From: a virus
Taxonomy: Duplodnaviria > Heunggongvirae > Uroviricota > Caudoviricetes
Length of the DNA stretch: 30,204 nt
Reading direction: 5' to 3' (one strand)
Virus record (IMG/VR): IMGVR_UViG_3300045988_156735
The position numbers and the translations under genes were made by a program. Below, one piece after another: positions 3,900 through 13,419 of the stretch. Numbering within the stretch: the first letter of the stretch is position 1; each line of letters begins with the position of its first letter. Under the pieces are notes generated by a model. That model was not told where the DNA came from. It did no database searches and worked only from the letters and a program-made list of their open reading frames with translations.

Positions 3900-3975
3900 G
3901 GCCCCTTAGCTCAGTGGTTAGAGCAGGCGACTCATAATCGCACGGTCATCGGTTCAAATCCGGTAGGGGCCACCA
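3900..3975 (+). tRNA. tRNA with CAU anticodon (tRNA-Ile2-like; could be annotated tRNA-Met)
   Basis: 76-nt cloverleaf folded by hand: acceptor GGCCCCT/AGGGGCC, D-arm GCTC-AGTGGTTA-GAGC, anticodon arm GGCGA-CTCATAA-TCGCA, T-arm ATCGG-TTCAAAT-CCGGT, discriminator A and encoded CCA. The 5-prime half matches my memory of E. coli ileX. Confidence 0.85.
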
Positions 3976-4283: not shown

Positions 4284-4871
4284 ATGGAGGCAATTGCATT
4301 GTTTAATCTGATTTATGCAGATCCCCCCTGGGAATACAAAGACAAGTGTAAGGATGGGAATCGTGGAGCTGGTTTTAAGTATCCAACGATGAAAGCTGAG
4401 GAGATTGCTCGTATTCCTGTCTGGCAACTTGCTAATCCTGAATCGTGTTTGTTGGCCATGTGGTGGGTTCCGACTCAGCCAGAAGAAGCGTTGCTGGTGG
4501 TGAAAGCATGGGGGTTCAGGCTTATGACCATGAAGGGCTTCACATGGAACAAATGTGGTAGCCGACAGCCAGATAAGCTGGTGATGGGGATGGGGCATAT
4601 GACTCGTGCGAACAGTGAAGATTGCTTGTTTGCGGTAAAAGGCAAACTGCCGACCCGCCTTGATGCGGGGATCATTCAGTCGTTTACATCGCCTCGTCTG
4701 GAACATTCACGGAAGCCTGATGTGGTTCGTGACAAGCTGGTAAGACTGTTAGGTGATGTTCCTCGTATTGAGCTGTTTGCTCGCGGTGATTTACCTGATG
4801 GCTGGCATGGCTGGGGCAACCAGTGCAACGGAGGTATCCAGTTGCATGATGCTCTCTGGCAAGTGCCATAG
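4284..4871 (+). CDS. MT-A70-family N6-adenine DNA methyltransferase (orphan, no restriction partner seen)
   Basis: 195 aa with the catalytic DPPW tetrapeptide (LIYADPPWEY) near the N-terminus and layout typical of small phage MT-A70/Dam-like enzymes. Confidence 0.75.
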   Translation: MEAIALFNLIYADPPWEYKDKCKDGNRGAGFKYPTMKAEEIARIPVWQLANPESCLLAMWWVPTQPEEALLVVKAWGFRLMTMKGFTWNKCGSRQPDKLVMGMGHMTRANSEDCLFAVKGKLPTRLDAGIIQSFTSPRLEHSRKPDVVRDKLVRLLGDVPRIELFARGDLPDGWHGWGNQCNGGIQLHDALWQVP

Positions 4872-6425: not shown

Positions 6426-6833
6426 ATGCGCACCGATCTAGATTATCTAAAAAAGATGCTGACTGTGTTTTTGGATTCAGAAAGCACGTTCATAACAGTA
6501 AATCAACTAAGAGACGCGGGGTTTGATATAGCCTCAGAAAAGGGCATGTTTCATTATATGCAATTGATTGAGCAAGGTTTTATCAGCAATATGAAGATGG
6601 AAACGCGTGATCCTCTGCGTCTTGGCTATGTTAATTTTTTGGCAGGAATGAGGACTGTTGATGTAGATATTAGATTGACTACAGAGGGACAGGATTTTGC
6701 CTGTGCACTAGAGAGCAAAGATGTTTTCGCTAGACTAAAAGAAATTAGCAATGAGCCATTGGCTGTTATGAAGGATGTTGGTGTAGAACTTCTCAAGTCA
6801 TTGGCAAAGAAGAAGTTTGGTTTATCTGATTAG
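6426..6833 (+). CDS. Hypothetical protein (136 aa), possibly winged-helix-like
   Basis: Strong RBS AAGGAGG 5 nt upstream of ATG 6426; AT-rich upstream region; intrinsic terminator directly downstream. Confidence 0.55.
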   Translation: MRTDLDYLKKMLTVFLDSESTFITVNQLRDAGFDIASEKGMFHYMQLIEQGFISNMKMETRDPLRLGYVNFLAGMRTVDVDIRLTTEGQDFACALESKDVFARLKEISNEPLAVMKDVGVELLKSLAKKKFGLSD

Positions 6834-6861
6834 TGCAGATACCTGTTTGCTATTTATTTAT

Positions 6862-6891
6862 AAAACCACCTGCGGGTGGTTTTGTTTTTTT
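6862..6891 (+). terminator. Rho-independent terminator
   Basis: AAACCACC - TGCG - GGTGGTTT hairpin followed by a T-rich run (tgttttttt). Confidence 0.7.
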
Positions 6892-6952
6892 AGCATTACA
6901 GCAGCTCTTGTGCTTACCAGGGGCTGCGATAATGCGCAAACCAAAGCTGCCT

Positions 6953-6996
6953 CATTAACTCCAGCTCGCTGTGGAGTTAATGCTGGTGGCTTTTTT
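6953..6996 (+). terminator. Second hairpin with T-run (possible tandem terminator or structured RNA)
   Basis: 11-bp perfect stem CATTAACTCCA/TGGAGTTAATG with 8-nt loop, then GCTGGTGGC and TTTTTT. Confidence 0.35.
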
Positions 6997-7125
6997 ATTA
7001 CTGGAAGGTGGGCGACCGCCGTCAGTTGCGACCTGACGACAGTCATTCATACCCACAGGGTGCCGTGGATACAAACCGAGGCCCACTTGCTTGCACAAGC
7101 GAGGGGATTTTAGCGGATAAACGGC

Positions 7126-7749
7126 ATGACAAAACATCTTAATGTGGTTTCTTTACCACTTTCTGTGTTGATTGGTTATGAAAAGAACGCTCGCACACAC
7201 TCCGTGGAGCAGGTAGATCAGATTGTTGCCAGCATACAGGAGTACGGATGGACTAATCCGATCCTGATAGACGAGAACAACGTTGTAATTGCTGGTCATG
7301 GTCGAATTGCTGCGGCCACTCAGTTGGGGATGGATGATGTTCCCTGCATTGTTCTGGAAGGGCTAACGGAGAATCAGAAGAAGGCATATCGTCTGGCCGA
7401 CAACCGTATTCCGCTGAATGCTGGTTGGGATGAAGAGCTGTTAAGCGCGGAGCTTGCAGATCTTGCGGCCGATGATTTTGCTCTGGACTCAATTGGTTTT
7501 ACTCAGCGCGAACTGGATAACTTATTGAGTGCGGCGGTCTACGATGACACAGAGGGTATGGATATCCCATTTGAGAAGGATGAGGCCAAATCAGGCGTAA
7601 AAGTTCAGTACCTGTCATTTGGAGGTCATAAAATCCCGGCAACGGATGAGGAAGCGGATCGTTTTGACTGCGCGGTGTCTCGTTATGTTGATGATAATGG
7701 CAGCTATATCGGATTTGTATCCGCATTGCTGGCTGGGGAGGTGTGCTGA
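7126..7749 (+). CDS. ParB-like N-terminal domain protein (paralog 1)
   Basis: 207 aa; ParB/Srx-type block ...NPILIDENNVVIAGHGRIAAATQLG...; about 60 percent identical by eye to the ORF at 10416-11006 over the N-terminal 100 aa. Confidence 0.65.
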   Translation: MTKHLNVVSLPLSVLIGYEKNARTHSVEQVDQIVASIQEYGWTNPILIDENNVVIAGHGRIAAATQLGMDDVPCIVLEGLTENQKKAYRLADNRIPLNAGWDEELLSAELADLAADDFALDSIGFTQRELDNLLSAAVYDDTEGMDIPFEKDEAKSGVKVQYLSFGGHKIPATDEEADRFDCAVSRYVDDNGSYIGFVSALLAGEVC

Positions 7750-9122
7750 TGCTTCACCTCAATTACGACATAACGCACCTACGCGGCGCGGAATATAACC
7801 CGCGTTTTATCGGTGAGGATGATCTTGCGAGGCTGGCGGAAAGCGTCAGGGAGCTGGGGCTTGTGAAGCCATTGATAGTGCGCGGCGATTTGCTGGTGGC
7901 GGGACACCAAAGGACGAAGGCGCTACGTAAGTTGGGAATAACGCGTGCTGCGGTGTATGTGTTGCCCTGTGAAACGACGGTATACGACGAAGTACGGTTT
8001 AACCAACTGCATAACGGAACGGATTTTGATAGCGGAGATGAGCGTTGCAGGGTGTCCGGTCTGGAAGATAAGCATGGTTTTGTTCAGGTATCGGCAAGCC
8101 AGATCTCAGGCAATATGCGCGCGAAAATGGCATATGTTCGAAAGAACATAGCGGAACTGGTTATCAAGTATGGTCCGTGGGGTGGTTGTGTTGCTACTCA
8201 GTCTGGTGAGGTTATTCACTGTGCTCAGTATGCATTAGCAGCGAAAATGACGCGCACACCGCTAACGGTGTTTGTGATCCCTGATGTTGAGAAGGAAAAA
8301 TACCAAAGTTATCTGAATAAAACTTATGGTGTATTTGAGTATTCTCATCTGGAGAAAACAACATACATCCAGACGTATGCGCAGCTTATGCGGTTGCGTA
8401 ATGGTGGCAGCCTGAAATCAAATCTGTATGAGTCGTTGATCCTCCCGATCATTGCCAAGACGCCAAGAGGAATTGATTTTGGTTCGGGGCAGGGAGACTA
8501 CGCGCGAATGCTCAGGGCAAAGGGATATAACCTGCATGATCTCGAGCTTTTCCGCCGTAAGGGCGCTGGAAACACTCTGGATAGGGCCGCAACAAACCGG
8601 ATGATTGATACGCTGGTGGACGACTTAAAAACGCGAGGGCGTTATGACTACGTGATTTGCGATAGCGTTTTGAACTCGGTCGATAGTGTCGAGGCTGAAT
8701 GGTCCGTTCTGACGGTTCTAAAAGGCCTGTGTAAAGCTGGTGGGTCAATATTCTTTTCTGGTCGTAGCCGTGGAGAGCTGGAAACAGTCCTGAAGCAAAC
8801 ACAAGCGGCGAGTTCCAAAAGCCGGCTTTATTTTATTGATCATAACGGTTTTACCGCGTTGTACCGGAAGGGGCACTGGTTTTACCAGAAGTTTCACTCT
8901 GATGATGAAGTGAAGCAGTTGTGTCGTGTACATGGTTTCAGGATTAAGCGGTCAATATTCAACTGTAAGAGCTGGTATTTGCACGTCATTAACGATGATT
9001 CCCTTAGTTGGGCGAGTCTGGAGAAAGCTGTTCGTTTTGAGTTTGAGTTGCCGTTGCCTGGTGGTTCAACAATCGGACGATCTGATGATGTGCTGGCGGC
9101 TTTCCGGCCGTTGATTAAGTAG
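7749..9122 (+). CDS. Fusion protein: ParB-like N-terminal domain plus C-terminal class-I SAM-methyltransferase-like domain
   Basis: ATG 7749 overlaps the upstream stop (ATGA) with GGGGAGG 9 nt upstream; N-terminus LIVRGDLLVAGHQRTKALRKLG (ParB-like); C-terminal half has IDFGSGQGDY (glycine-rich SAM motif I-like) and YDYVICDSVLNSV; no DPPY/NPPY-type motif seen. Confidence 0.55.
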   Translation: MLHLNYDITHLRGAEYNPRFIGEDDLARLAESVRELGLVKPLIVRGDLLVAGHQRTKALRKLGITRAAVYVLPCETTVYDEVRFNQLHNGTDFDSGDERCRVSGLEDKHGFVQVSASQISGNMRAKMAYVRKNIAELVIKYGPWGGCVATQSGEVIHCAQYALAAKMTRTPLTVFVIPDVEKEKYQSYLNKTYGVFEYSHLEKTTYIQTYAQLMRLRNGGSLKSNLYESLILPIIAKTPRGIDFGSGQGDYARMLRAKGYNLHDLELFRRKGAGNTLDRAATNRMIDTLVDDLKTRGRYDYVICDSVLNSVDSVEAEWSVLTVLKGLCKAGGSIFFSGRSRGELETVLKQTQAASSKSRLYFIDHNGFTALYRKGHWFYQKFHSDDEVKQLCRVHGFRIKRSIFNCKSWYLHVINDDSLSWASLEKAVRFEFELPLPGGSTIGRSDDVLAAFRPLIK

Positions 9123-9138
9123 TGTGTAGGAGGCGCTG

Positions 9139-9858
9139 GTGGCTGACAGAATTGAGATAAAGATGGATTTTTCTTCTCAGGATATTCAACGACAACTCCA
9201 GCGCCTTGAAGAACGCGAATTGCCGTTCGCAATGGCGCTTGCGGCAACCAGAACGGCAAAGGCTTCTCAGGCTGCGATTAAGAATGAAATTAATCGGGTA
9301 TTTGACAGGCCCACGCCGTGGATTCAGAACTCTACTTACGTTTTGGCCGCAAAGAAGAGTGATCCTACAGCCATTGTGTATGCTCGTGAATGGGGAGGAA
9401 CGCCAGCCCCTGTAACGTTGACTCCGCAAATCGAAGGTGGCCAACGACAGTACAAACGCTCAGAAGGGGCGCTAAGGGCTGGTGGATATTTGCCTAACGG
9501 CTGGCAGCTTGCTCCTGGTCCCGGCGCAAAGCTGGACAAATACGGGAATATTTCGCGGGGGCAATTACAGCAGGTCTTATCTGGCCTAAGAGTTCAGCGA
9601 GATGCGCATCAAAATCGCCGTCAGGGCAAGCCTACGGAGTTTTTTGTTGTTCGACCTGGTACAAGTAACCCGCTTCAACCAGGCGTCTGGCAGCGCGTTG
9701 GGCGGCGTCCTACGTTGATCCTTACGTTTATCCAGCAACCTAACTATTCGCAGCGTCTTGATTGGCATGGCGTGGCGCTGCGTGCTGGTGAGGATGCGTT
9801 TGCTGATGAAGTCACAAAGGCTATTGATGACATTCTTTCTAAGACCTTCTCTCGTTAA
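9139..9858 (+). CDS. Hypothetical protein (239 aa), third gene of the ParB-like module
   Basis: GTG 9139 with AGGAGG 6 nt upstream, 16 nt after the previous stop; Gly/Pro/Arg-rich central region; no motif recognised. Confidence 0.5.
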   Translation: MADRIEIKMDFSSQDIQRQLQRLEERELPFAMALAATRTAKASQAAIKNEINRVFDRPTPWIQNSTYVLAAKKSDPTAIVYAREWGGTPAPVTLTPQIEGGQRQYKRSEGALRAGGYLPNGWQLAPGPGAKLDKYGNISRGQLQQVLSGLRVQRDAHQNRRQGKPTEFFVVRPGTSNPLQPGVWQRVGRRPTLILTFIQQPNYSQRLDWHGVALRAGEDAFADEVTKAIDDILSKTFSR

Positions 9859-10048
9859 TCATCGTGTGGTTGATGGTGTTGTTATGCAGAGTGTATTCAC
9901 TGTGTTCTGTAGCGTCGCTCGCTGGCTGTCTGTGGGGGAGCACGAGCATCGTTTCATCGTCCGGCAGAATTGGGTCCTTCTGGCCAAAAGCGTTGGATGC
10001 GGGTCATTCGAACCCCGATGTTCGGCTAGCTAAACGTGAAAAAAGTTA

Positions 10049-10419
10049 GGTTAAAAGTTGCGGTAAAAGAAATTTACTCATCTCATTGAAAAATATCGGG
10101 AAAACGTGATTTTTTGCTGTATTTGTGCTGGTAAAAAGAAAGTAGAAAATTTTCTTTTAGATCATCAAGATACGCGCAGATCTTTAACCAATGTGATGTT
10201 GTTCTGATAAAAATCGTTATAAATCATGCAAATACATCCAATCTTTTAACCAAAACACCATCTCAAGATCCTTTTTACTTATAAAAACTTAATAAAATCA
10301 GATGATTATGCTGGTTTGTGTGATTTTTTATGAGTAAAAAGATCGTCATTTTTCTCTTTTAGTATCAATAAGTTAAACAGTTTTCTTTAACCTGTTGTGT
10401 TATGGCGGTTAAAAAATGG
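10049..10419. promoter_or_regulatory. AT-rich spacer with iterated TCTTTAACC-type motifs and GATC sites (candidate packaging site, protein-binding array or promoter)
   Basis: Direct repeats TCTTTAACCAA (10181), ATCTTTTAACCAAAA (10241), TTCTTTAACC (10383); inverted GGTTAA copies at 10049 and 10407; GATC at 10160, 10179, 10267, 10341; no credible ORF. Confidence 0.4.
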
Positions 10420-11006
10420 CTCTAAAAATCGAATATTTACCAGTCGGTAAGCTGCTCAGATACGCCAAAAATTCACGGACTCATTCAGATGAGCAGGTTG
10501 AACAGTTGGTGAACAGTATCCGTGAGTTCGGTTTCACTAATCCTGTGCTGATCGATGAAAAGAATGAACTGATTGCGGGGCATGGTCGGCTTGCAGCAGC
10601 CGAAATTCTGGAAATGGATAAAGTTCCGGCGATTCGGTTGAGTAACCTTTCTGAAAAACAGAAGAAGGCTTACAGGATTGCAGATAACAAGCTGGCCTTA
10701 AATGCTGGCTGGGATATGCAGCTTCTGGCCGAAGAAGTCAAAGAGTTAATGGATGATGATTTTGATATTGATCTGCTTGGGTTTAATGATGCAGAGCTTG
10801 ACGAAATGTTAAGCGATGAACAGCCGCAGGAAGAAGACGATAATTCTTCCCCTGTTGTTCAAATTAAGTACCTGTCTATTGATAAAGAACGTATTCCCGC
10901 GACGGATATGGAAATTGCATTGTTGCTGGATGTTTATCGTCAGTACCACGACGCGCATGAAACGCATGAGGGATTTGTTCAGTATCTTGCTAATGGTTGC
11001 AAGTAA
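10416..11006 (+). CDS. ParB-like N-terminal domain protein (paralog 2), immediately upstream of the terminase genes
   Basis: 196 aa; ...NPVLIDEKNELIAGHGRLAAAEILE...; stop overlaps the small terminase start (TAATG). Confidence 0.65.
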   Translation: MALKIEYLPVGKLLRYAKNSRTHSDEQVEQLVNSIREFGFTNPVLIDEKNELIAGHGRLAAAEILEMDKVPAIRLSNLSEKQKKAYRIADNKLALNAGWDMQLLAEEVKELMDDDFDIDLLGFNDAELDEMLSDEQPQEEDDNSSPVVQIKYLSIDKERIPATDMEIALLLDVYRQYHDAHETHEGFVQYLANGCK

Positions 11007-11557
11007 TGGCCATCGTCAGTAAGTCAGAGTTTGCTCGCCGGAAAGGTATTTCTCCGGCAATGGTTACGAAGCTCTGTCGTTCCGGTCGCATTCCAGTGCT
11101 GAAAAGCGGCAAGCTGGATTTTGATAAAGCCAGTGCGGCTTATGAAGCGAGCCGACAGGTTGGTCGTGAGGTATCTGCTGAAAATGGAAAAAGAGGGCAT
11201 GGGATATCTTCGGAACAACCAGAGTTACCCGCTGATGATGCCGGATTAGCTGGTGGTACTTCCGGTGTTGCGGTGCAATTCAACAAGGCTAAGACCGCAG
11301 AAAAAATTTATCAGGCAAAGCTGAAACGCCTTGAATTTGAAGAAAAGGAAGGCTCTCTCATCGCTAAAGATGCGGTCAGGGATGATGCATTTCTGGCAGC
11401 TAATGAATTGCGTAGCCGCTTATTTAGTATTGCTCCAAGAGCAGCTCCCCGTTGTGAAGGCAAAACAGCCAGGGAGATCGAACGCATTATTGAAGACGAG
11501 ATTAATTTTGCGCTTCAGGCGCTCCAGGAATCCCGATTTATTAAGCAGGAAGAATAA
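11006..11557 (+). CDS. Terminase small subunit
   Basis: 183 aa from ATG 11006; N-terminal HTH-like segment (SKSEFARRKGISPAMVTKL); ends 5 nt before the large terminase. Confidence 0.65.
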   Translation: MAIVSKSEFARRKGISPAMVTKLCRSGRIPVLKSGKLDFDKASAAYEASRQVGREVSAENGKRGHGISSEQPELPADDAGLAGGTSGVAVQFNKAKTAEKIYQAKLKRLEFEEKEGSLIAKDAVRDDAFLAANELRSRLFSIAPRAAPRCEGKTAREIERIIEDEINFALQALQESRFIKQEE

Positions 11558-11562
11558 ACCTC

Positions 11563-13419
11563 ATGGGCGAAACAGTATGGAGCACCGCTTTTTTCCGTGC
11601 GCTTCGCCCTAAATCACGGCTAACTGTTTCCGAATGGGCTGATAAGTATCGTCATGTAGCGCCGGGAACGTCTCCAGAGCCAGGGCCGTGGCGTACAAGC
11701 CGAGTGCCATATTTGCGTGAACCAATGGATGTTATTGGTGACGCTGATACAGAAACAGTAGTGATGCAATGTAGCTCGCAAATTGGTAAATCCGAATTAC
11801 AGCTAAATGTTATGGGTTACTTTGCAGATCAGGAGCCATCTCCTCAGTTGATGATTTATCCAACGGTAGAGGCGGCTGAGGCTTTTTCAAAAGAGCGTAT
11901 TGATCCGACGTTCAAATATTCCCCTGGTTTGAAACACAAGCTGCATGAAGGGAAAGAGGGGCGCGGTGCAGCCAAAAAGTCCAGCACGACTATACGTATG
12001 AAGCATTACGCTGGTGGATATATAGCACTTGTTGGTGCTAATTCCCCAGCAGGTCTTGCATCCAGGCCAATTCGAATACTGTTAGCTGATGAGATTGATC
12101 GTTACGGTGTGACGCAGGAGGGCGACCCACTAAAACTAGGTATTCAGCGTACTACCAACTTTCATAATCGTAAGAAAGTTTTTGTTTCTACTCCTGTTTT
12201 GGAGGAAACGAGCAAAATCCACAAGTGGTTTAAGCTCTCCGATCAGCGTTACTACCATGTTCCTTGCCCATGTTGTGGCACCATGCAGGTGATGAAATGG
12301 TCGCAAGTCAGATGGGATAAGAGCGATTCAGGTGAGGCGTTACCGGAAACGGCCAGATATGAGTGCTGTGAGTGCGGCGGGATTATGCGCGGATCTGGTA
12401 AACCAGACGTTGATTGGTTGGCGAAGGGGGTATGGATAGCTGAACATACTGGAGTTAAAGGTATTGTTGGTTTTCATATTAACAGTCTTTACTCCCCGTG
12501 GGTTGCATTGTCAGAGCTGGTTGAAGAATTTACGGAAGCAACCAGAAACCGCGATAAAAATGGATTAATGGAGTTTATTAACCTTAAGCTGGGTGAGCCA
12601 TGGAAAGAGGATGCTAAAGACGATATCGATCCTGAATACTTGTTGCAACGCAGAATAAGGTTTGAAGAGTTTTTACCAGATGATGTTTTATTGTTAAGTG
12701 CTGGTGTTGACGTACAGGACACGTATTTAGTTTGTGAATTGGTCGGTTGGGGAAAAGGTAAGGAGTCATGGGGGATAGAATATAAAATATTCCCAGGTGA
12801 TCCCGCACAAGATGTTGTCTGGAAACAACTTGATGAATACTTACTCCGTAGCTGGTCATTCCGTGACGGTCGAAAATTACAGATTTCTTCCGTTTGTATT
12901 GACTCTGGTGGGCATTTTACGACAGAGGTATATCGCTTTACTAAGCCGAGAGAATCAAGGCGAATATACTCTATCAGGGGGCGTGGTGGGGTAGGTTTAC
13001 CATTTATAGGAAAGCCAAGTAATAATAACCGTGTGGGTGCTATGTTGTTTAATTTGGGGGTTGATGATGGTAAAGGGACCATCATGGCAAGAATTAAACT
13101 ACATGATCCTGGTCCTGGTTATATGCATTTCCCATTAGATTCTGACAGAGGATATGATACCGAATACTTTAAAGGATTATTATCAGAGAAGAAAATATTT
13201 GAATATAAAAATGGGCAGACAAAAGAAAAGTGGGTGAAAGTCTACGAGCGTAACGAGCCTCTTGATTGCCGTAACTATGCAACTGCCGCGATGGAAATTC
13301 TGAACCCTAATTTTAACTGGCTTGCCGAACAGGAAATGCGAGGTAATGTGTATGTGCAGAACTCGTCAGGTATACGTAGAAGACGCCGTAGAGTTATAAG
13401 TAAAGGCGTAACCATATAG
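11563..13419 (+). CDS. Terminase large subunit, lambda GpA family
   Basis: 618 aa; N-terminal region with VMQCSSQIGKSE P-loop-like block and overall length and layout matching GpA-type terminases as I recall them. Confidence 0.8.
   Translation: MGETVWSTAFFRALRPKSRLTVSEWADKYRHVAPGTSPEPGPWRTSRVPYLREPMDVIGDADTETVVMQCSSQIGKSELQLNVMGYFADQEPSPQLMIYPTVEAAEAFSKERIDPTFKYSPGLKHKLHEGKEGRGAAKKSSTTIRMKHYAGGYIALVGANSPAGLASRPIRILLADEIDRYGVTQEGDPLKLGIQRTTNFHNRKKVFVSTPVLEETSKIHKWFKLSDQRYYHVPCPCCGTMQVMKWSQVRWDKSDSGEALPETARYECCECGGIMRGSGKPDVDWLAKGVWIAEHTGVKGIVGFHINSLYSPWVALSELVEEFTEATRNRDKNGLMEFINLKLGEPWKEDAKDDIDPEYLLQRRIRFEEFLPDDVLLLSAGVDVQDTYLVCELVGWGKGKESWGIEYKIFPGDPAQDVVWKQLDEYLLRSWSFRDGRKLQISSVCIDSGGHFTTEVYRFTKPRESRRIYSIRGRGGVGLPFIGKPSNNNRVGAMLFNLGVDDGKGTIMARIKLHDPGPGYMHFPLDSDRGYDTEYFKGLLSEKKIFEYKNGQTKEKWVKVYERNEPLDCRNYATAAMEILNPNFNWLAEQEMRGNVYVQNSSGIRRRRRRVISKGVTI

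Follow-up and report, generated by a model that had tools for sequence, protein, structure and literature searches.

The 30,204-nucleotide stretch of tailed-phage DNA analyzed here (Caudoviricetes; IMG/VR record IMGVR_UViG_3300045988_156735; hereafter the window) encodes two ParB-like proteins, ParB1 and ParB2, on either side of a cos site. We consider it moderately probable that these are two diverged copies of different origin, each serving as an activator or loader for a different partner enzyme that acts on phage DNA. The two belong to a single subfamily of short phage proteins with the ParB/Srx (ParB-CTPase) fold, within which they diverged long ago. Comparison with related loci shows ParB1 to be the first gene of a portable two-gene cassette; this cassette brings its own structured RNA leader and, in many unrelated phages, fills the final slot of the late region, immediately before the packaging genes. 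The second gene of this cassette encodes a fusion of a ParB_N domain with an S-adenosylmethionine (SAM)-dependent methyltransferase (hereafter the fusion). The same comparison assigns ParB2 to the core of the cos packaging module (cosN, repeat array, ParB2, and the small and large terminase subunits TerS and TerL). The features concerned are listed below by window position (lengths in amino acids, aa).

6860–6891, plus strand: hairpin with T run resembling an intrinsic terminator (terminator scan), which ends the upstream accessory genes directly before the ParB1 leader and is also seen in spurious Rfam alignments.
6997–7125, plus strand: predicted structured RNA leader of ParB1 (conservation, covariation).
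7126–7749, plus strand: ParB1, 207-aa ParB/Srx protein (open reading frame, ORF), first cassette gene.
7749–9122, plus strand: fusion, 457 aa, ParB_N domain followed by another alpha/beta unit and by a class I SAM-dependent methyltransferase (Methyltransf_23), second cassette gene.
9139–9858, plus strand: p239, 239 aa, phrog_1924 (labeled "minor tail protein"), backbone, final gene before cos.
10002–10013, no strand assigned: cosN, 12-nt cohesive end GGTCATTCGAAC (ends of phage records, conservation).
10046–10415, no strand assigned: cosB-like array of short repeats (repeat comparison across relatives).
10416–11006, plus strand: ParB2, 196-aa ParB/Srx protein (ORF), first gene past cos.
11006–11557, plus strand: terS, small terminase subunit (match to phrog_57).
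11563–13419, plus strand: large terminase of the lambda gpA type with ATPase and endonuclease domains (Pfam GpA_ATPase, E 7e-76; GpA_nuclease, E 1e-84).

Both ParB ORFs are annotated in RefSeq as ParB/Srx N-terminal domain proteins, and they indeed belong to the ParB/Srx superfamily. ParB2 scores 33.7 bits against Pfam ParB_N (PF02195; cut-off 26.3) and matches phrog_620 (E 2e-75). ParB1 falls just under the same Pfam cut-off (24.8 bits), matches phrog_620 (E 3e-74), is homologous to ParB2 (E 4e-62) and aligns to the N-terminal module of PADLOC MTase_II (E 6e-38); apart from this ParB-methylase N-module, PADLOC assigned no defense system. The AlphaFold2 (AF2) model of ParB2 (predicted local distance difference test score, pLDDT, 84.7) comprises a nucleotide-binding domain (residues 1–92), three short helices (101–132), a disordered acidic linker (139–147), and a C-terminal domain made of a beta-hairpin and two helices (151–192). 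When this model was searched with Foldseek, the top matches were the nucleotide-binding regions of M. xanthus ParB, Noc, PadC, C. crescentus ParB and KorB, and sulfiredoxin was also matched. ParB1 was assigned its architecture by co-linearity with the ParB2 model. In both proteins, the predicted layout is thus a nucleotide-binding domain joined by a helical pair and a disordered acidic linker to a C-terminal domain of ~45 aa. Neither has a helix-turn-helix (HTH) domain: Pfam gave no HTH match and no match to the C-terminal domain, and the ParB2 model offers only the three short helices before the linker. Neither protein contains an N6_N4 methylase domain with (D/N/S)PP(Y/F), and both end after the C-terminal domain. 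Across 26 sequences, the phosphate-binding residues N19-x-R21, G55-H56-G57-R58 and D90-N91 are invariant or nearly so, and the residues that contact the phosphates of a nucleoside triphosphate (NTP), namely the box I Arg, the box II GxxR and the box III Asn, are retained. Box II, GHGR, aligns to GERR of Spo0J, and substitutions are seen at the hydrolysis residues (Q to N, E to H).

The genomic setting of the two genes is that of a plasmid. The window region is found as ~48-kb circular plasmids at ≥99% identity in 74 of 5426 complete E. coli genomes, E. coli ATCC 25922 being among the carriers, and also in phages vB_EcoM-613R2 and Yersinia vB_YpM_39/41/44. The full record of pP136-7 describes a phage-plasmid with RepA, ParA and an 82-aa partner, a P2-like contractile tail, a lambda-like terminase, a portal and a ClpP protease. 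One or both ParB-like proteins could be centromere-binding partition proteins, or regulators that spread on DNA like KorB or VirB and act on late transcription; the element is a low-copy plasmid prophage, the ParB nucleotide-binding fold is present with its phosphate-binding residues, and a repeat array adjoins ParB2. However, besides having no HTH domain, the two proteins score 31.0 and 40.0 bits against the partition model TIGR00180, below its cut-off of 58.45. Neither gene has a ParA neighbor; over 13 kb of the plasmid separate them from ParA (217 aa), which has an 82-aa partner of its own. Moreover, genes of the ParB1 and ParB2 types occupy the same positions in integrated chromosomal prophages, and the repeat array is located where lambda-type phages have cosB. 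Because of the sub-threshold scores, the separate ParA and partner, and the occurrence of the same genes in chromosomal prophages, neither ParB1 nor ParB2 is the partition ParB of the plasmid, and we regard partition or spreading regulation as a very improbable function for either.

The likeness of the two proteins extends from end to end rather than being confined to a short generic motif. BLASTP aligns residues 5–204 of ParB1 with 3–194 of ParB2, with 97 of 201 positions identical (48%) and 65% positives. Split by domain, a global alignment gives 60% identity for the nucleotide-binding domain (residues 1–98) and 50% for the helical pair, compared with 33% for the linker and 35% for the C-terminal domain. 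Over the codon alignment, the nucleotides are 54% identical and 32% of third positions agree, which indicates that synonymous sites are saturated and that the duplication is old. A preliminary description of this DNA had already placed the two ORFs at these exact coordinates, described them as co-linear with ~60% identical N-domains and similar C-terminal tails, and argued from low nucleotide identity against a recent duplication; all of this agrees with the present measurements. The N-domain identity does not, however, mark a special relationship. The N-terminal 135–150 residues of both proteins match the N-module of prophage ParB/DNA-methylase fusions (E 1e-38 to 1e-52), and an identity of 55–64% in this module is a plateau common to hundreds of prophage ParB_N clusters with unrelated C-termini. 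An N-domain identity of ~60% is therefore family-wide background and does not tie ParB1 to ParB2. The actual link between them is the shared C-terminal tail. Among the best 150 representatives, co-linearity reaches through the C-terminal domain in a minority of about one in ten; in this domain, ParB1-type proteins are 35–84% identical to ParB1, ParB2-type proteins are 56–81% identical to ParB2, and cross-type identity is 27–42%. In the representative search, orphan ParB-fold proteins formed 35,755 clusters at 50% identity. One protein (P0364, 406 aa) carries two ParB2-like modules in tandem within a single polypeptide.

To place the two copies in a phylogeny, distant relatives were taken from IMG/VR loci and the representative library, since the homologue search with ParB2 returned only sequences at ≥98% identity. 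In a bootstrapped neighbor-joining tree of the N-domain (custom distance and tree code), ParB2-type proteins form a clade with 97% bootstrap support and ParB1 falls in another with 70%; the tree does not group the two clades as sisters, and it leaves the deep nodes unresolved. Relatives carry separate orthologues of each copy, at 59–86% identity. The ratio of nonsynonymous to synonymous substitution rates (dN/dS) is ~0.06 for ParB1 and ~0.04 for ParB2, with dN far below dS and dS saturated. These values indicate that both copies are under purifying selection. The pair is maintained, the two-copy state being retained in Escherichia, Salmonella and Serratia versions of the element. A recent duplication that left one copy redundant or decaying would account for the end-to-end co-linearity. 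It is ruled out by the low nucleotide identity, the saturated third positions and the separate clades; the separate orthologues and the low dN/dS of both copies also speak against it, and we assign it next to no probability.

ParB2 is a backbone gene. The order p239, spacer, ParB2, TerS, TerL is kept in every locus with a TerL at ≥75% identity and sufficient flank, and p239 immediately precedes cos and ParB2 in all relatives, whether or not they have the cassette. p239 accordingly belongs to the backbone and not to the cassette. The idea that the two copies bracket one module is thus not borne out, since the 239-aa gene is backbone and cos lies between the copies. With cos in this position, ParB2 would be the leftmost gene in the virion, and ParB1, the fusion and p239 the rightmost. 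In one relative (L097 1612–2781, minus strand), a 389-aa ORF is inserted between p239 and the cos spacer. In two loci with a TerL ~56% identical to that of the window (L102 and L107, 6879–7298), no ParB_N gene lies upstream of terS and one lies directly downstream of terL.

The cos site itself lies in the AT-rich 557 bp after p239. Its core, GGGTCATTCG(A/T)ACCCC, is invariant in Escherichia, Salmonella-type, Serratia and Yersinia relatives. The vB_YpM_39 record begins at the 12-mer GGTCATTCGAAC, and the vB_YpM_44 record ends with it and begins right past it (both records come from one study). Two records that break on either side of the 12-mer carry the signature of a 12-nt cohesive end. Together with a gpA-type TerL, this defined cohesive end upstream of the terminase genes points to lambda-type cos packaging. 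The adjoining array contains the repeat CTTT(T)(T)A(A)CC, first in three reverse copies (10049, 10062 and 10130) and then in forward copies (10182, 10243 and 10385). The repeat unit differs by lineage, being CTTTTAACC in the window and TTGTTAAC at homologous positions in Serratia and Yersinia; in Serratia and Yersinia loci, 10 of 12 and 8 of 8 copies of TTGTTAAC lie inside the spacer, where three reverse copies again precede the forward ones. This arrangement makes the array cosB-like in appearance. In the viable phage vB_YpM_44 (L004 1–330 compared with window 10014–10416), ~90 bp of the array are missing, roughly window 10138–10228, which indicates that part of the array is dispensable.

The location of ParB2 between cosB and terS, with translational coupling to terS (the ParB2 stop overlaps the terS start by 1 nt, TAATG), would also suit a nuclease. 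In such a scheme, ParB1 and ParB2 would be ParB-type nucleases or nickases, with ParB2 aiding the terminase at cos in the manner of the HNH proteins of HK97-like terminases and ParB1 nicking or degrading DNA for its cassette. Non-specific nicking or DNase activity has been reported for ParB/Srx domains fused to methylases and in Osa (PMC5512222). In other phages a ParB_N gene is often the first gene beside the terminase, and where TerL is 56% identical one directly follows terL. However, the gpA-type large terminase carries its own endonuclease domain. The lambda gpA-type large terminase needs no helper nuclease. Beyond the generic ParB fold, the ParB-like proteins show no nuclease motif; no HNH match (Pfam, phrog) was found in ParB1, ParB2, the fusion or p239, and histidine takes the place of the glutamate in the GERR box. 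The only tested phage ParB of such architecture is an activator and not a nuclease (PMC13229309). A nuclease role is thus conceivable, although we consider it unlikely.

The second cassette gene is directly coupled to the first, as the stop codon of ParB1 overlaps the fusion start by 1 nt (TGATG). Hence the earlier view that one copy heads a module and the other is coupled to the small terminase is well supported. The fusion carries the third ParB_N domain of the locus at its N-terminus and matches phrog_5475 (function unknown) over its whole length. Its model (pLDDT 93.9) shows this ParB_N domain, a second alpha/beta unit with the same secondary-structure order, and a class I methyltransferase. 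The middle segment (window 8043–8318, residues ~99–190) follows the ParB/Srx order and has invariant G153, H157, Q160 and Y161. Residues 99–200 align to the ParB_N profile in register, although weakly (hhalign probability 7.7%, pairwise E 0.0045), and the segment matches neither the first domain of the fusion nor any Pfam family; tentatively, this second unit is possibly a degenerate ParB-like domain. No profile similarity was detected between the ParB C-terminal domain and any segment of the fusion. In the methyltransferase, DFGxG is present, no PP(Y/F) occurs among the conserved columns, and the fold resembles small-molecule and tRNA methyltransferases. Thus, it is not a canonical N6A, N4C or C5 DNA methylase. 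True ParB_N/N6_N4 fusions with SCPPY are present in other loci.

The cassette varies among near relatives and recurs in unrelated surroundings. Among near relatives, the pair occurs in only a few lineages: in the E. coli lineage, in a Salmonella-type version (ParB1 81% and fusion 90% identical) and in Serratia proteamaculans (59% and 70%). It is missing from ~18 IMG/VR contigs and from a Yersinia mollaretii prophage with the same backbone. L019 has the cassette and L020 does not, though their ParB2 genes are nearly identical, and in L016, with a backbone 99% identical to the window, only the last 31 fusion codons remain. There (L016 5519–5707, equivalent to L082 2456–2548), other DNA replaces ParB1 and most of the fusion, and a small chimeric ORF ends in the last 31 residues of the fusion. 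Outside the lineage of the window, a ParB1 orthologue followed by the fusion gene was found in 9 loci, with a reverse-strand ORF intervening in one (L076). A ParB1-type gene and the fusion immediately precede unrelated terminases in lambdoid prophages of Klebsiella and Serratia aquatilis, in Bacteroides phage BS-TP3 and in environmental phages; the pair is also present in a Bradyrhizobium prophage region, where no terminase lies within the stretch fetched. The fusion family as a whole comprises at least 771 clusters and is 45–60% identical across phyla. The variable presence among near relatives and the occurrence beside unrelated terminases show the pair to be a portable cassette. With the ParB2 clade tied to the backbone and the ParB1 cassette polymorphic and portable, the mosaic join proposed in the preliminary description stands in part: a cassette was apparently inserted into a lineage that already had ParB2, rather than two genome halves being joined. 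The question of whether related phages carry one or two copies likewise has an answer, with relatives of both kinds found, ParB2 always accompanying a TerL at ≥75% identity and the cassette variable.

Upstream of the cassette or cos, relatives carry further accessory genes, including an Acb2/Tad1-like protein (L009 7230–7508), a RelA_SpoT and NA37 pair (L010 2148–4213) and a PrlF/YhaV toxin-antitoxin (L071 5134–5948), which suggests that this slot is a hotspot for conflict genes. In other prophages, the pre-terminase slot is taken by a ParB_N gene that accompanies a TAGT (TET-associated) glycosyltransferase, or by a ParB_N/N6_N4 methylase fusion (L075 6001–7636; L037 7001–8320). These contents bear on a further explanation, in which the cassette is an anti-defense device with a non-DNA target: the ParB folds would bind a nucleotide or signal molecule, the methyltransferase would modify it, ParB1 would be a regulatory subunit and ParB2 would be functionally unrelated. 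The match of the methyltransferase fold to small-molecule and tRNA enzymes rather than DNA methylases favors such a device, as do the binding of ATP, CTP or GTP by ParB folds (PMC12704722), the sponge, toxin-antitoxin and RelA_SpoT genes of the accessory slot, and the polymorphism of the cassette among close relatives. In contrast, the same-slot genes that share the ParB_N module are bona fide DNA modifiers (N6_N4 methylase, TAGT), a location just ahead of the packaging genes suits an enzyme that acts on DNA awaiting packaging, and no nucleotide-modifying precedent was found in the literature searched. On balance, we judge an anti-defense role decidedly unlikely.

ParB1 is also set apart by the RNA that precedes it. 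The ~130 nt before ParB1 are 85% identical to those of a Klebsiella prophage (L011) whose ParB1 protein is only 50% identical. The leader is predicted to fold into a closing stem, GGUGGGC/GCCCACUU, that encloses three hairpins. Its alignment shows compensatory changes in two hairpins (seen in A6/A7) and G-U to A-U changes in a third. RNAalifold predicts 27 pairs, and 97.3% of cells are paired, compared with 23–48% when partners are slid; the covariation score is 0.198 compared with ≤0.085, although the sequences are related and provide few independent covariation events. Leader copies were located at L011 7859–7988, L010 7852–7986, L009 7859–7989 and L019 3612–3739. An invariant 18-nt core occurs in 56 IMG/VR contigs (L108–L163), and in all 51 of those that captured a downstream ORF, a ParB_N gene of varied architecture starts 50–54 nt after the core. 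A covariance model of the leader matched window 6983–7112 at 118 bits and found the element upstream of ParB1-type genes; it found nothing upstream of ParB2 or ParB2-type genes. Thus, ParB1 differs from ParB2 in regulation as well as in origin. The leader has no RefSeq annotation, and a comparison of the window with 4227 Rfam covariance models returned only a tRNA at gathering threshold, with chance-level matches (E up to 1) in 6700–7300. A weak match to the leader model (16.7 bits) was seen at L071 2325–2453 (plus strand), with the cores TGGGCGGC and CGAACCAAGGCCCA in common; in this Yersinia mollaretii prophage, which has the same backbone, the match lies just before an N6_N4 DNA methylase gene that stands alone.

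Because GTCATTCATACCC in the leader resembles cosN GTCATTCGAACCC, a second cos-like DNA site was considered in place of an RNA. This was set aside as the main explanation: a 7-mer match of this kind has a chance of about one in six, the G-U pairs are strand-specific, and the element also occurs in prophages with terminases of the Terminase_2 and Terminase_6 types, typical of headful packagers.

ParB1 consistently adjoins the methyltransferase fusion and ParB2 adjoins TerS, and the copies differ in these downstream partners, in their upstream control regions and in a fast-diverged C-terminal domain. Together with the retention of two copies and the excess of dS over dN, these differences lend indirect support to functional specialization, which the preliminary description had offered as a second explanation. 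A precedent for such roles comes from phage ParB homologues with nucleotide-binding and C-terminal domains and no DNA-binding domain, which activate a cognate thymine dioxygenase on double-stranded DNA (PMC13229309; O'Toole et al., PNAS 2026). The activation shows cognate specificity, and such parB genes are often near terminases. In addition, a 2025 survey (PMC12704722) found fusions of the ParB fold with Methyltransf_23 to be enriched in phages and functionally untested. By analogy, the most likely role of each copy is to activate or load a partner enzyme of its own that acts on phage DNA. For ParB1, this partner would be the adjacent methyltransferase fusion, with ParB1 as its cognate accessory factor, much as the phage ParB switches on its dioxygenase. 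ParB2 might be a similar adaptor for the terminase complex at cos, or for a DNA-modifying enzyme encoded elsewhere. The C-terminal domain, having diverged fastest, would prevent cross-pairing and let both copies coexist. The other genes of the pre-terminase slot, in which ParB_N is found with TAGT or with an N6_N4 methylase, likewise point to DNA modification.

Several points weigh against this explanation. The activator role is drawn by analogy. The fusion already carries its own ParB_N domain, so the need for a separate ParB is not obvious, and its methyltransferase resembles small-molecule and tRNA enzymes without DNA-methylase motifs, so that DNA is at most a putative substrate. The neighbor of ParB2 is a terminase and not a modifying enzyme, and the literature searched held no precedent for a ParB-terminase partnership or for a ParB-like protein with a small terminase or at cos. 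As for different origins, an old duplication within the lineage followed by export of one copy could have produced the same distribution, because the deep nodes of the tree do not separate the two histories. Base composition gives weak support to a foreign cassette: GC content at third codon positions (GC3) is 0.47–0.52 in the cassette and 0.39–0.43 in the packaging genes, but higher values are found in p239 and the early genes as well, so that cassette and backbone are not clearly separated.

Elsewhere in the window, a tRNA gene lies at 3900–3972 and an MT-A70 family methyltransferase gene at 4284–4871, ~5.5 kb upstream of ParB2. The latter is a second orphan methylase of the window and could be a partner of ParB2.

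In a more far-reaching form of the proposal, short ParB-like proteins would act as nucleotide-gated adaptors through which enzymes are brought to phage DNA as it is packaged. The cos repeat array would be the loading site of ParB2, which would work with the terminase; the cargo of ParB1 would be a non-canonical SAM methyltransferase, responsible for an undescribed modification of DNA (or of nucleotides); and the leader would act as a new regulatory RNA that responds to a ligand or protein and controls phage DNA-modification genes. We think this form quite unlikely.

Orphan phage ParB-fold proteins and ParB-methyltransferase fusions are already known kinds. Apparently undescribed so far are this combination of partners, the placement of one copy on each side of cos, and the RNA leader. 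Orphan ParB-fold proteins are very common in phages and almost none has a known role, the first functional example, the activator of a DNA dioxygenase, dating from 2026. The phage-plasmid is a natural test case, with two diverged copies in one genome, different partners, and close relatives that have one copy. The cassette is a widespread and strongly conserved gene pair for which tractable hosts (E. coli ATCC 25922 is a carrier) and lytic isolates exist, and the leader is a candidate regulatory element missed by current annotation. The system could show whether ParB-type adaptors generally direct phage enzymes to their own DNA before packaging.

Compared with known systems, the two proteins share with the partition ParBs of ParABS (Spo0J, P1 ParB, KorB and Noc) the N-terminal NTP-binding ParB/Srx fold, the box II Arg and the box III Asn. 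They differ in having no HTH domain, GHGR in place of GERR, no adjacent parA and sub-threshold TIGR00180 scores, and in occurring also in integrated prophages. A second likeness is to the prophage ParB_N/DNA-methyltransferase fusions (phrog_498; PADLOC MTase_II PDLC03229; the B. cereus ParB-methylase cited in PMC5512222), whose N-module matches the first 140–150 residues of ParB1 and ParB2; some of these fusions, 62% identical in the N-module, even share the RNA leader of ParB1. However, ParB1 and ParB2 continue into a short C-terminal domain and not an N6_N4 methylase with (S/D)PPY, and the neighboring fusion has a class I Methyltransf_23 domain without a PPY-type motif.

The packaging module resembles the lambda cos module (cosN-cosB-Nu1-A) in its 12-nt cohesive end with partly symmetric flanks, its repeat array before the terminase genes and its gpA-type TerL, although lambda has no ParB-like gene between cosB and terS. 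As with the HNH helpers of HK97-like terminases, an extra small gene lies beside cos and the terminase, here without an HNH domain. A close parallel in layout is with the ParB176-type activators associated with 5mYOX, in which, likewise, a short helical segment and an unstructured linker connect the nucleotide-binding domain with the C-terminal domain and no DNA-binding domain is present. Like the ParB2 model, they have M. xanthus and C. crescentus ParB as their nearest structures, and they are encoded beside a DNA-modifying enzyme, often near terminase genes. The positions mutated in ParB176 (N-x-R, S and G-x-x-R) have counterparts in ParB1 and ParB2 at N19, R21, S34 and R58, as matched by the published description. 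In contrast to the dioxygenase of those systems, the partner here would be a SAM methyltransferase with its own ParB_N domain for ParB1 and a terminase for ParB2.

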